Positions 38,891 to 56,968 of a stretch of DNA of 64,000 nucleotides are shown piece after piece (the stretch's first letter is position 1; every line of letters starts with the position of its first letter). The notes below the pieces were generated by a model, which had not been told where the DNA came from, searched no databases, and worked only from the letters and a program-made list of their open reading frames with translations. The stretch is from the NCBI GenBank assembly GCA_024679065.1, contig JAGIQG010000004.1, forward strand, positions 54,560,001-54,624,000, given 5' to 3'. This DNA is from Sphyrna mokarran (lineage: Eukaryota). Both the position numbers and the translations under genes were made by a program.

Positions 38891-38945
38891 ATGCCTGGAA
38901 GAATCTCATTTCAACCCGTCCTGATCCTGGCCTTTTGTCTCACAG
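38891..38945 (+). CDS. Non-rearranging VJ-C1-TM Ig-superfamily receptor, exon 1 (signal peptide). Gene model: join(38891-38945,39201-39506,49225-49521,51080-51199,56766-56968), 326 aa
   Basis: ATG...ACAG|gtatgt; MPGRISFQPVLILAFCLT hydrophobic leader, phase 1, matching the V exon. Confidence 0.82.
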
Positions 38946-39200
38946 GTATGTGTCTTCAGTATAATACCGATATCGGATAAGCTGACTAAAATCATCAGAA
39001 AATATGTAAATTACATTGCAATTTAGGGTTGGGGTAATTTTCTATTGTACCTTCTGGAGTTCCTCTGGCCGCCCTATTTTCAGTGAAGAAGATATTTGGA
39101 ATTCAATGATAAAAGTTTATTGTCGGCCCCTTTTCTGCTAGAAATATTCCACTCACCCTCTCCCTCTCATAAGTAATTTTTTTTGTTTTTTTTGTAATAG

Positions 39201-39506
39201 AAGTTGGCGGCAAAATACAGCAAATGCTTGATGTGACAAATGCGGTCGCGGGACAGACAGTGACTTTTCACTGCGTATTCCCACTGTTCAGGGATGTTCA
39301 TAAGATCGCAGTGTACTGGTGGAGAGATGGCGAACGAGAATTCTTAAAACCGCAGCAAGATTCCAGGAGAAGTTTCATGGTTGAGACCAAAGCAAGCGCC
39401 ATTCTGCGCATTGCCAAGGTGCGTTTTGAGGACGCCGGAGTTTATTATTGTAGAGTGCAGGGTGAACATAATGGAAATGGAACTGGCATACGGCTGGATG
39501 TAACCG
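39201..39506 (+). CDS. Ig V-set domain exon with J-like G strand (NKp30/SIRP/antigen-receptor-like)
   Basis: taatag|AA...ACCG|gtgagt; TVTFHC...VYWWRDG...LRIAKVRFEDAGVYYC...GNGTGIRLDVT, with canonical C, W, DxGxYxC and a GxG bulge. Confidence 0.92.
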
Positions 39507-41749
39507 GTGAGTGATTCTTCACAGCGATTGTGGAAAACACAAGTTAAATTTACAATAATAACAATCGGGGCCAGTGATGTAGGGCAGAGGTATGGCTTGA
39601 GAAAACGGCCGGGATGGATACAGCTAATCAATGTTAATTTGCCACCCTTCATTATGGCACATTCACAAACGACCATTGCGTCTGCGATTAGAAGCTGACA
39701 GAATTAGAGATACGGCCCCGGAAGGTCGGAGCTTTTGTTGGTGAAAGTTCAGCACAGAAAACCGAATGCCGATTATTGCACAATTCAGATCCCACCTCGG
39801 CATTTGTGTATTGCGCTCTCGCTTTAACTGCTATTTCGAAATAATTTGCTGCAGAAAATAACATTCATTTAAAATATACATTTCACAATTTCCCCTAATA
39901 GTTGCAAGATGCGAAATGTAACAAGCGTTGGCAATAAGCGATCACCTCTTATCCAATGATATCGCTAATTTATCCTCCGGTCTTGAATGGTTTATGTTTA
40001 GAACGAAATCCATTGGTTTAAATGTGTGTTAAACCTTTTCGCTGTTTGTTACCCCCTTTTATGAAATGAAAATCGCAGAATTGTCAACACAGAAACGTAA
40101 ACCTCGGCCAAAAGTGTGAGTTGAAATCTTTCAAAAATAAAATAAGAATATTTAAAATATTCAGAAAGTCTGGCAGTGTCTGTGATGAAACAGAATTAAA
40201 TGGAATATAGCTCTGTTTTGGAAGTTTACTGAGATGTCCCGTCTTTTTGACCAGGATAATTTGGAGGCATTGTCAGCGGAACTGAATGAAAACAGGTTTG
40301 AATAACACGAAAATTCTTGTTCACGGCAGGGAGAATAGTAGGATTTGTCTGATAGGATTTGTCTCGCAAGATCGGCATTAGACACCAGTGGAAATCTTCT
40401 CTCAATGGGTATCTGGAGCGAAGTGGTTATTTTTCAAAGCCAGTTTGTTCCAGTTATCCAAACAGTAGATTTTTCCAAAGTTGGATCCAGTAGGATCAAA
40501 AAGTTTCTGGAGGTAGAGCGAACCGGATTGTATTCAGCTGAGTTACTGATCGATTCTTGAGCATATTTTGTCTTTGTTGAATGTGTTTAAAAATATTTTG
40601 ATTATGTTATAAAATCCGCTCTACCCAACATCATTCATTTTACACATTATTGCAAAATTAAATTACTTTGTGTAGTCAGAGGTACGTCACAGGAATAAAT
40701 GGTTAATATCATATTTCTCGCAAGTTTTATTCCCAATTGATATCGCCCGTTTAGTACCTTAGCACCCTTATTGTTCCGAATTATTAAAACAAACTGCAAC
40801 TCACCAGTTGTCCAAACCCTGAATTAACTGATCATTCTGTTTGAAACTCAAGGGCTATATATAAAGAATCACAGTTAAATTTCCGAATTAAAATCACCGA
40901 ATTTCGCACGAGAAAAATTCCTCTCGCATTTGAGCCCCCCTATCTAGTTTGTGTTCCTTTGGTCTAAGTTGAAACTCCCAGTAAATTGATCGAAAATCGA
41001 CATAACAAACTTTTTCTGTCCCTGAAAATTAATAATAATATTTAACTTAGAACGTTTAATTGTTAAATGCTAAGATTTATTCAGTATCGTGTCAAATGTA
41101 TGTCCTTCTCAAGTTGTTAATTATTAATTCAGTGAGTTCAACCCGACCATTTACTTCGCGTTTGGCGTCCGAAACTATGATGTGCTGGAAGCAATATTTG
41201 AGGAAGAAAATAAAAGGTTTGATTCCGAGACGAATCATTCTTTAATCATTCTTTGAACCAGGATTATATTTGGGATTTAATTTGTGGCACAAACTACGCC
41301 CTGCAATTTATTAACTTGGCTAACAGTAATAATTTCTCACTCTCAATTGAAATTGGGACGTTGGTTATAGAATAAAAATAGTCTCATGGCCGAAAGTTCG
41401 ACTGCCCTTCCACACACCTATTATTGTAAATGCAAAGAGTGTAACCATTTTTATCCAGTCGTATTCTTCAGCATTCCTGTTTTTGCTAAAAACTAGGAAC
41501 AGGAGGAGGCGACTGGTCCCTCTAATCAGCCCCCCTTTTAAAAAGGATCATAGCTGATTTTTTTCCCTGCCTCAACTCCACCTTCTCGCCTGTTCAATAT
41601 AGCCCTTCAAACCCTTACTAATTAAAAGTCTGTTAAATTTACTCAATGTCTCCAAATTCACCACACTCTGGGTAGTGCATTCCACAAATTCACCACCCTT
41701 TGAGAAACAATTCCTCTTGGCAAGAATTTATGGCAAGGTTTGAAATGGA

Positions 41750-42030
41750 TAAGGTGGCACAAAGCTGCCTCAGAGCATCAGGAATCTGGATTCCATGCCA
41801 ATCTCAGGTCACTGTTTGTGGAGTTTGCATGTTCTCCCTTTGTCTCTGTGGATTTCCGCTGGATGTTTTGGTTTCCTCCTTCATTCCAAAGATGTTAGGT
41901 GATTGACCATGCTAAATTCCCTCTTGGTATCTAGGGTATATGGGGTTAAGGGATAGGACCTGCGTGAGATTGTCATTGGTGCAGGTTTGATAGGCCAAAT
42001 GATCTCTTTCTGCGCTGTAAGGAGTCTAGT
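41750..42030 (+). mobile_element. HE1-like V-SINE inserted in a decayed minus-strand CR1
   Basis: V core tgtggagtttgcatgttctcc...ccaaagatgt. A CR1 3' end is visible at about 41490-41720. Confidence 0.7.
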
Positions 42031-55200: not shown

Positions 55201-55489
55201 ATGCATCACAGCTTACAGAACACGAACATCTACCTTCCCACTGAGTTTTGTTTGCCATCTGATATTTCAGGAGGCCATCAAATAGATAATTAAATTAGAC
55301 ATCACATGTCAAACCTATCCTATCACAAAAGTAGCGATTGAAATGGTGAACCTCAGAGGAGTTAACCCCATTATCCTTAATTCAAATTTATGGAAGTTTT
55401 ATTGCTTTAAAATGCATTAGAAGCAAAAGTACGAACTTTTAAATAATAGATTATTTTAAAAACATTATTGTCTAATTTTTTTTTCCATA

Positions 55490-56210
55490 AGATGTAACCA
55501 TCACTGGCAAGATCAGTATTTCTTGTTCATCTATAGTTGCTGTTGAAAAGTGGTTGGGGGTTGCTTTCTTGTACTACTGCAGTCCATCTGTTGTAGATAC
55601 ACCCACAGTATTGCTAAGAAAAGAATTCCAGGATTTTGACCCAGTGACAGCAAAGTAGTTACACGTCAAGATGGTGTGGATTGGAAGAGAACTCCCTGTT
55701 GATGATGTTCATGCCTTTGCTGCCCTAGTCCTTAGAAATTGTAGAAGTTGCAGGTTTGGAAGGTGCTATTGAGCTTCTGCAGTGCATCTTCTAGATGATA
55801 CACACTGCTGTCACTGTTTAAGGTGTTGGATGGCAACCGATCAAGTGGAATTATTTCTCCTAGATGTTAAGCTTTTTGAGTGAAGATGGAACTACGTTCA
55901 TCCAGGCAAGATGAGGGTATTCCATCGCACTCCTGTCTTGCATCTTGTAGATGCTGAACTGGCTTTGAGGAGACCGGAGGTGAGTTACTTGCCACAGATT
56001 TCCTCACCTCTGTTCTGCTACTTGCAGCGACAGTATTTATAGTGCTGATCCAGTTCAGTTTCTCATCAATTGTAAACCCTAGGATGGTGGGGCATCCAGA
56101 AATGCTAATGCTGAAATGCTGAATGTCAAAGGGACATGGCTATATTCTTTCTTGTAATGGTCATTGCCTGACATCAATGTTTCTTGCTACTTATTTGCCC
56201 AAGTCTGAAT
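55490..56210 (-). mobile_element. Old CR1-group LINE fragment
   Basis: Colinear similarity to 29640-30430. Confidence 0.75.
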
Positions 56211-56765
56211 GTAAAATAAAAATGTCCCTCCCTTTTACAGCCTATGTATTGATATCTGGTTTGTAGACTAAGGTATGAATTGGCCAGATTTTCTGATTTA
56301 CAATAAACTGTATCAGCCTATTGTGGTTTTATGGCATTTCTCTTGCAACATTATTTCAATTTCATATTATGCATTAAAATATGCTTCATTGTAATGTGTG
56401 ATTCTCTAATGTATAGATTTATAATAATCCAGTTTTCACATGTTGTATCATGATGAAGTAAAAAGAGACTTGAGCAATGTCACTAAAACAGATAAATTGA
56501 TCATTATCTCATTGCTGTTCAGGGAGCAATGCTGTTGGCAAATTGACTGTTTCTTACGATACAATTCACAATATATTTGAATGAAATGTTTTTGGATGTT
56601 ATGAAAAGTATTACATAAACATCCTGTCTTCTTCTTAGACAATAGATTAACTCAATAATTTGACAAGTGGAAACTTCCTGGTCAACGTTGCTCAAGCAAT
56701 AAAGTTTGCTGACTCATCAGCGGTGTCTAACATTTTCTATCGTTTTCATGTTGTTTTTCTCACAG

Positions 56766-56968
56766 CTCTTGAAGGCAACATTCAAATGAGGCGTTGTGTT
56801 CGCTGCTCTGAGCCAGTAACAAAAAATCCTAAATGCAATGAGCAAGGAGTAAACAAAGACAATACTCAGACACCACCAAAGAACATGAACAAAGTTGAAA
56901 AAGCTAATGAAACCACACAAAAGCGCAAGAAACACCACAAACAAGATCGGTACCCCACATGTGCCTGA
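56766..56968 (+). CDS. Probable terminal cytoplasmic exon of the IgSF gene
   Basis: Polypyrimidine tract ...ttctcacag|CT, phase 1 and in frame; ALEGNIQMRRCVRCSEPV...RKKHHKQDRYPTCA*. Small intervening exons cannot be excluded. Confidence 0.68.

Follow-up and report, generated by a model that had tools for sequence, protein, structure and literature searches.

The window analysed here, a stretch of 64,000 nucleotides of Sphyrna mokarran DNA, contains a real shark gene that encodes a V domain with its own J-like strand, a C1-set domain, a transmembrane (TM) segment and a cytoplasmic tail. This gene very probably belongs to a large chondrichthyan family of V-C1-TM receptors, apparently undescribed, with members in sharks, rays and chimaeras. 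It is not a lone relic: dozens of V-C1-TM paralogs share its clade. We consider the product to be, more likely than not, a germline, non-rearranging surface glycoprotein (leader-VJ-C1-TM-tail), and a non-signalling member of a paired-receptor-like multigene family of cartilaginous fish.

The gene comprises five exons on the forward strand (leader, V, C1, TM and tail) with an open frame of 326 amino acids plus a stop codon, and all four introns have GT-AG ends and are in phase 1. Exon 1 (38891..38945) supplies the ATG and 18 leader codons plus one base, ending in a phase-1 donor, and matches the Mustelus ortholog at 78%. Exon 2 (39201..39506) encodes the end of the leader, which is split by a phase-1 intron close to that end, and a short V domain including its own G strand, as indicated by a Pfam V-set match (E 5.7e-11) and by a structural model. 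The C1-set domain is encoded by exon 3 (49225..49521; E 6e-10, with fold matches in agreement), and both Pfam matches pass the curated cut-offs. Exon 4 (51080..51199) encodes an uncharged TM helix and a juxtamembrane cysteine cluster, while exon 5 (56766..56968) encodes a cytoplasmic tail with a CxRC motif (56795..56806), a basic end, the stop codon and no ITIM- or ITAM-like motif. The first AATAAA 3' of the stop, a candidate poly(A) signal, is located at 57339..57344 on the same strand. A Mustelus protein matched all five exons in order by tblastn; the exon joints rest on database gene models. These data bear out the initial annotation in its reading of a V domain and J-like G strand within one exon, followed by open, phase-1 C1, TM and tail exons. 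The likeness to J is itself partial: the strand NGTGIRLDV (39476..39502) keeps GxG and xLxV, but an Asn-Gly-Thr sequon stands where J has Phe/Trp, and Ile replaces Thr.

Searching all six frames of the 64 kb with family profiles revealed one V and one C1 domain and no more. The absence of another V segment from the window therefore stands as first noted, although the gene is nonetheless one of a large multigene family. A weak tblastn match at approximately 59200-59450 (E 0.81) was not confirmed by these profiles. No recombination signal sequence (RSS) above background was found beside the V exon within the 64-kb window; an RSS-like site at 39520 is attributed to chance because 56 sites in the window grade equal or better. 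A GC-rich inverted repeat was also considered as a substrate of A-to-G hyperediting, which was not established. Separately, every word sampled from the V exon is present in one contig set, the type of which is only guessed.

The V domain is short, with 59 residues between its cysteines, and its model contains no strand of at least three residues at positions 61-74 (the C'/C'' region), where pLDDT exceeds 95. The V domain of VNAR is likewise short, and VNAR was a fold match to the model of the window gene (Z 13.9). Residues N111, G112, T113 and G114 are unchanged in 9/9 aligned orthologs, and NG[TS] occupies the J-like position in 48/71 rows. Residues of the BC, DE and FG loops are kept among orthologs but not in paralogs. 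For the C1 domain, the best fold matches were MHC class II beta-2 (Z 15.5) and Ig light chain C (Z 15.4). A PDB search with a V-only profile pointed to no particular family; NKp30 was absent among the best 60 of 5316 rows and among the 50 fold rows listed, neither of which excludes NKp30. The Atlas search returned generic Ig clusters and nothing more. A first model, built from nine sequences (pLDDT 57), was uninformative, as was its Foldseek search, and an ectodomain homodimer prediction scored 0.00, which is evidence neither way.

Orthologs of the window gene were collected from 19 species of sharks, rays and a chimaera, with 39-83% identity where aligned. Their branching matches known shark relationships, and the chimaera ortholog groups, weakly (83/32), with paralog P0017. 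Within the family the window gene is an odd member, having no tyrosine motif, no TM charge and an invariant cytoplasmic CxRC: an ITIM-like motif occurs in 0/17 ortholog tails, and CxRC is present in all 17 ortholog proteins examined, chimaera included. Exon 4 has 120 bases and is bounded by phase 1 on both sides, and therefore its skipping keeps the frame; a TM-skipped form is annotated in database gene models from five species (isoforms P0003, P0005, P0009, P0011 and P0032/P0175).

The family forms a clade with support of 100/99 on V+C1 (45 rows). When the V and C1 domains were analysed in separate phylogenies, the C1 tree recovered this clade (98/98), but in the V-only tree the family did not emerge as a clade with support. 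With the family V profile, 108 proteins score at least 70 bits and proteins outside the family reach no more than 30 bits, and both a V-set and a C1-set domain are present in 42/42 aligned members. Identity between paralogs of one species is only 31-52% across V+C1. At least 23 of the 70 non-redundant members, 39 of which carry no species name, have ITIM-like tails (25 were flagged at first; P0085 and P0203 were removed as mis-calls), and about six gene models (P0021, P0038, P0047/P0203, P0091, P0132 and P0192) combine an Arg-bearing TM with a short tail. Many of the gene models are partial, and 15 rows are without a TM. In all ten species for which both are named, ortholog and paralog are located on records of identical length; this linkage is drawn from equal record lengths rather than coordinates, and no second family gene is present in the 64 kb. 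The automatic names attached to family members conflict and number at least eight, the commonest being 'SIRP-alpha-like' and another 'Ig lambda-like', and a ray isoform with V alone bears the automatic name NCR3-like; this conflict may have hidden the family. No description of the gene or the family was found in the searchable literature, outside of which lie Ohta 2019, Fu 2019 and Dornburg and Yoder 2022, which may cover it, and six family accessions or locus ids returned no mention in the searchable papers.

The upstream neighbour is OGFOD1, the open frames of which span 4505..29091 on the forward strand. This span is that of open frames with Pfam matches (2OG-FeII_Oxy_4 at 4505, weak; Ofd1_CTDD at 8425, at 19734, weak, and at 28885) and does not give exon limits. 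Between 57000 and 64000, 0/98 open frames of at least 38 amino acids had a Pfam match, and therefore no downstream neighbour was identified. In reedfish, ogfod1 is accompanied by nudt21, hsf4, cbfb, bbs2 and nlrc5, which are genes of human 16q, and no Ig gene is annotated on its 3' side. Reedfish chr12 has genes labelled 'SIRP-alpha-like'. Every named family member comes from a cartilaginous fish, in agreement with the suggestion that the gene is lineage-specific or was lost elsewhere. With one flank visible in the window, the OGFOD1 block does not appear among the MHC paralogons discussed in the accessible portion of PMC10751288.

The special link to the pre-RAG receptor that was first proposed is not supported. 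On that view the gene would be a relic of a pre-RAG antigen-receptor chain, sister to UrIg/Ig/TCR and forming a paired VJ-C1 dimer, which we consider quite unlikely. Its minimal VJ-C1-TM layout, GxG within one exon and apparently split leader are in keeping with such an origin, as are the best sequence matches of its C1 domain (Ig lambda C and UrIg2) and an AU test that did not reject a grouping of the family with UrIg2 (p=0.284). However, Phe/Trp at the J position occurs in 0/67 scorable family rows, the V domain is short and modelled without C'/C'' strands, the TM has no TCR-type charged residue, the family V profile matches UrIg2 at only E 9e-5, a C1 clade (97/94) made up of UrIg2 domains and an Ig-like C leaves out the family, and the locus lies outside the paralogons noted above. 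The family was likewise not grouped with UrIg/Ig/TCR in our trees, which contained no rearranging Ig/TCR V, NKp30 or PRARP sequence. UrIg and UrIg2 resemble the window gene in their single-exon VJ, C1 domains, C1 similarity and presence in cartilaginous fish, and apparently in a split leader, but they have three and about nine C1 domains, respectively, map to the MHC and Ig/TCR complex, and show marginal V similarity to the family. A non-rearranging VJ-type V followed by a true C1, TM and tail thus remains from the original proposal, whereas the antigen-receptor precursor reading is not supported, and nothing ties the window gene specially to the antibody ancestor. A germline-joined shark Ig light-chain gene, as an old product of RAG, is hardly credible: light chains were the top Foldseek matches of the low-confidence first model and 'Ig lambda-like' is among the automatic names, but the gene has TM and tail exons, no FGxG and no RSS above background in the window, and its orthologous group extends to chimaera.

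It is also quite unlikely that the protein belongs to the B7 family, as a B7-H6-like V-C1 ligand of shark NKp30 or of CD28-family receptors. Over the whole ectodomain, B7-H6 shared the top fold score with others (Z 15.3, 192 residues at rmsd 4.5) and matched the ortholog profile at 5.8e-21; the lack of signalling motifs in the tail, together with a soluble form, would fit a ligand, and a grouping of the family with B7-H6-like proteins was not rejected (AU p=0.243). Against this, nine B7-H6-like rows without a GxG strand form their own branch (99/96), and the paralogs have receptor-type ITIM-like and Arg-TM tails; B7-H6 (NCR3LG1) and tapasin-related proteins share the V-C1 ectodomain but are not paired receptors. 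NKp30, the CD28 family and NITR share a germline V with a GxG G strand, although NKp30 and CD28 have no C1 and NITR have V and I domains with a near-perfect FGxGT. Non-avian PRARP is a V-C1 protein with inhibitory tail motifs, as in the family's paralogs but in none of the 17 ortholog tails. The gene could accordingly be an already described non-rearranging VJ-C1 gene, either PRARP or one of those of Ohta et al. 2019, and genes with a germline V(J)-C1-TM layout are in print (PMC10751288, accessible portion), here compared by description only. We find this unlikely, since the same portion places PRARP in the MHC whereas the window gene follows OGFOD1 and has neither tyrosine motifs nor a canonical J Phe, and since the six accessions or locus ids appear in no searchable paper.

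Our trees and AU tests do not decide among SIRP, UrIg2 and B7-H6-like proteins as the deep sister group of the family. It is conceivable, if doubtful, that the family is a chondrichthyan branch of the SIRP lineage, truly homologous to it, that the sturgeon V-C1-TM proteins are a further branch, and that the family may bind a CD47-like self marker. The family joins sturgeon P0176 and two lizard SIRP-like proteins in a 97/83 branch; hhalign over V+C1 gave E 1e-24 for the sturgeon and 3e-19 for the lizard SIRP-like proteins, human SIRP-alpha matched the family profile at 1e-33, and the paired-receptor logic and commonest automatic label point the same way. However, alternative sisters were not rejected, only two SIRP rows with long branches were included, and the V profile scores the lizard proteins at just 17-19 bits. 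The sturgeon P0176 cluster, annotated 'tapasin-related protein-like', is the best non-chondrichthyan match found (4.9e-11) and shares the GxG strand, a single C1 and a Lys close to the TM start, but its V and C1 are longer and its sister position is weak (92/30). SIRPs also have a non-rearranging, J-like V followed by C1, and inhibitory, charged-TM, non-signalling and soluble proteins all occur among them, but they have two C1 domains rather than one and a longer V, and the TM charge of SIRP-beta is a Lys, whereas that of the paralogs is an Arg close to the outer TM end. Moreover, human SIRP maps to chromosome 20 rather than to the OGFOD1 block, SIRPs are reported from amniotes only, and their origin is called unknown in the accessible portion of a 2022 review (PMC9652883).

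Judged at the level of motifs, the family is organised as paired-receptor families like SIRP are, which underlies our preferred reading of a non-signalling member. The specific mechanism that we propose for the window gene is tentative, and we give it somewhat less than even weight. ITIM-like paralogs would recruit SHP-type phosphatases, and Arg-TM paralogs would use an ITAM adaptor. The V domain of the window gene may bind a fixed, conserved ligand. Ig-style V-V pairing is presumably absent, given that the sequon at the J-like Asn, in place of the J Phe/Trp, predicts a glycan there. C1 would serve as a stalk, the cysteine cluster is a candidate for palmitoylation, and CxRC could dock a cytoplasmic partner, possibly via zinc, by analogy with the zinc-mediated cysteine clasp between CD4/CD8 and Lck. 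Through TM skipping, a soluble form would be freed and would compete for that ligand. As a working analogy we take SIRP-gamma together with SIRP-delta in the SIRP cluster, which includes inhibitory, activating, non-signalling and soluble members (PMC9652883, accessible portion).

There is an active search for germline VJ-C1 genes, for what they may reveal about how antibodies and T-cell receptors arose. The present data illustrate that the VJ-C1 layout alone is no marker of an antigen-receptor precursor. A bolder reading, to which we lend limited credence, is that cartilaginous fish have an undescribed complex of paired receptors, made up of germline VJ-C1 genes and with OGFOD1 as its anchor. 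The complex would be a deep homolog of amniote SIRP, with sturgeon V-C1-TM proteins as the link, and the window gene would be its oldest, invariant member, which couples to a kinase or other partner via a CD4/CD8-like cysteine clasp. If this is true, the earliest jawed vertebrates would already have possessed, outside the MHC paralogons, both SIRP-type self-recognition and the two-domain VJ-C1 module. A VJ-C1 family that spans the chondrichthyans and has inhibitory-type as well as activating-type members would be a candidate shark paired-receptor complex, and would make the origin of SIRP testable through synteny and CD47 binding.

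The window gene lies 3' of OGFOD1 on the same strand, with its ATG about 9.8 kb beyond the end of the last OGFOD1 frame matching Pfam. The five-exon model of the initial annotation holds: exon 1 (38891-38945), a V-set exon 2 (39201-39506; Pfam E 5.7e-11), a C1-set exon 3 (49225-49521; E 6e-10), a TM exon 4 (51080-51199) and a tail exon 5 (56766-56968), all on the forward strand, are separated by four GT-AG, phase-1 introns and give an open frame of 326 aa. The claims that a true C1 exon follows the V exon and that the window contains no further V are borne out by these domain matches and by family profiles, which yield a single V match and a single C1 match across the 64 kb. 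An RSS-like site just 3' of the V exon was dismissed as background because the 64 kb contain 56 sites of at least the same grade. The interval between OGFOD1 and the gene carries a GC-rich, 2.3 kb inverted repeat (33471-35762; arms 93% identical, loop 96 bases), whose end resembles a Penelope-type retroelement in motif. A related inverted pair of 0.7 kb is found at 42757-43460; A-to-G was the commonest change between the short and long repeats (19 of 61) and did not lead between the long arms. LINE reverse-transcriptase fragments occur at 10798-13320, 25708-26715 and 48133-48633 (RVT_1 confirmed at 25708, the others called by similar translation), and a DDE transposase fragment at 5710-6027.

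Sequence searches recovered orthologs, full-length but for one ray, from 19 species: Mustelus, two catsharks, white and basking sharks, five carpet sharks, horn shark, sevengill, sawshark, five rays (one represented by a V-only isoform alone) and one chimaera. The closest is that of Mustelus (83% overall), which makes a carcharhiniform shark the probable source of the window; the chimaera Callorhinchus protein is 39% identical. All five exons are matched in order by the Mustelus protein (tblastn), and the exon joining is therefore supported by ortholog annotation, in the form of database gene models rather than reads. Five species, the chimaera among them, have annotated isoforms that lack the TM exon of 120 bases. 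The labels given by automatic annotation disagree (SIRP-alpha-like, Ig-lambda-like, B7-H6-like, tapasin-like, tapasin-related, CD276, PD-L1-like, butyrophilin-like), and no ortholog is a characterised gene.

A phmmer scan with the Mustelus protein returned dozens more V-C1-TM proteins at about 30-48% identity. A family V profile scored 108 stored proteins at 70 bits or more and non-family proteins at 30 bits or less; clustering at 90% V identity left 70, and the 31 of these named to species are all cartilaginous fish. In the V+C1 tree, 45 chosen family rows form one clade (branch supports 100/99), with the window gene nested among its own orthologs. Ortholog and paralog record lengths are identical in 10 of 10 species having both, and the chimaera accession numbers are also near one another, which points to one chromosome per species; we infer a tandem cluster. 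The expansion is old, because within-species paralogs are only 31-52% identical.

ITIM-like tails were found in 23 of the 70 members (25 flagged, two mis-calls dropped), and about six gene models have a TM that starts with Arg, a mark of FcR-gamma-coupled activating receptors, followed by a short tail. At the motif level, this combination matches a paired-receptor family. Among Mobula proteins, P0192 and P0193 compared with P0058 and P0196 have near-identical ectodomains joined either to an ITIM-like tail or to a short tail behind an Arg-TM, the arrangement of classic paired receptors; P0195 and P0196 are annotated as C1-skipped forms. The paralogs P0017 (Heptranchias; in a 96/94 clade of the V+C1 tree) and P0133 (Callorhinchus) begin their TM with WW-x-Y as the window gene does, bear tyrosine-motif tails and probably represent its closest sister gene. 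The initial reading is partly borne out: the gene does encode a germline VJ-C1 receptor, but the evidence places it within a paired-receptor-like family of cartilaginous fish rather than marking it as an antigen-receptor precursor.

The orthologous group stands apart from most paralogs. An ITIM-like motif is present in 0 of 17 ortholog tails and CxRC is kept in all 17; the TM is without charge and a Cys cluster follows it. The window protein has a penultimate Cys (56960-56962), as do 8 of 17 ortholog ends; in the TM-less form this residue could form disulfide links in the manner of the IgM tailpiece. From sharks to chimaera the orthologs keep residues in the BC, DE and FG loops that vary among paralogs, suggesting that the ligand is fixed. 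Aligning the J-like strand with FGxGTxLxV puts Asn opposite the Phe/Trp; of 67 scorable family rows none carries either aromatic residue at this place, and an N-G-T/S sequon is found in 48 of 71 rows. Since the corresponding aromatic packs the V-V interface in Ig and TCR, a putative glycan at this position should disfavour Ig-style V-V pairing. The V domain is short (59 residues Cys to Cys), and a confident predicted model of the protein (pLDDT 82 overall, 86-98 per ten-residue block over both domains) contains no C'/C'' strands. The fold comparison gives ties: VNAR, scFv and I-set domains match the V (Z about 13.8), MHC class II beta-2 (Z 15.5) and Ig light chain C (Z 15.4) match the C1, and B7-H6 matches over both domains (Z 15.3).

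The best V+C1 tree, rooted on B7-H6-like rows and built, like the others, without NKp30, PRARP or rearranged Ig/TCR V sequences, places the family on a 97/83 branch together with one V-C1-TM protein of a sturgeon and two SIRP-like proteins of lizards. Over V+C1, hhalign ranks the sturgeon protein (1e-24) above the lizard proteins (3e-19), and the sturgeon group of P0176 is the best non-chondrichthyan match found; these uncharacterised V-C1-TM proteins (P0176, P0199-P0201) carry Lys close to where the TM begins, as well as a GxG strand. Sisterhood with UrIg2 was not rejected (AU p=0.284), although V alone reached only 9e-5 against UrIg2. In the tree of C1 domains, the family falls outside a supported clade that unites UrIg2 domains with one Ig-like C. 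Sisterhood with B7-H6-like proteins was likewise not rejected (p=0.243), and relations of the family are not resolved in the V-only tree. Separately, P0161 of Chiloscyllium plagiosum (781 aa, labelled perlecan-like), with many tandem germline V domains and GxG-like G strands, is another non-rearranging VJ-type gene.

Genes of the reedfish ogfod1 block correspond to human 16q genes. In the supplement of PMC10751288, this block also holds nudt21, cbfb, bbs2 and nlrc5, and hsf4 follows ogfod1 by 9.8 kb with no Ig gene annotated between. The MHC paralogons that PMC10751288 discusses do not include the OGFOD1 block; the literature assigns UrIg, UrIg2, NKp30 and PRARP to the MHC or the Ig/TCR complex (PRARP: PMC10751288). 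The same supplement labels genes on reedfish chr12 (about 7.4-12.5 Mb) SIRP-alpha-like, tapasin-related-like and B7-H6-like among killer-cell lectin genes; going by these labels, this cluster may be a bony-fish counterpart of the shark family. The literature searched (portions of PMC10751288, PMC12227049, PMC11599192, PMC9652883 and bioRxiv 2021.06.11.448072; Ohta 2019, Fu 2019 and Dornburg and Yoder 2022 fell outside this scope) gave no account of the gene or family, and an earlier description in print seems rather unlikely.

Together, these observations lead us to favour, with some reserve, the reading that this gene is the SIRP-gamma-like, non-signalling kind of member within a family of innate paired receptors. 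The data show the gene structure, its conservation and how the family is laid out, and the ligand, the cell type, the use of the glycan site and the cytoplasmic partner are inferences; the likeness to SIRP is one of layout, not of demonstrated identity. The V domain, lifted on a C1 stalk, would bind a conserved ligand, the CxRC of the tail would engage a cytoplasmic partner, and TM skipping may also release a soluble form.
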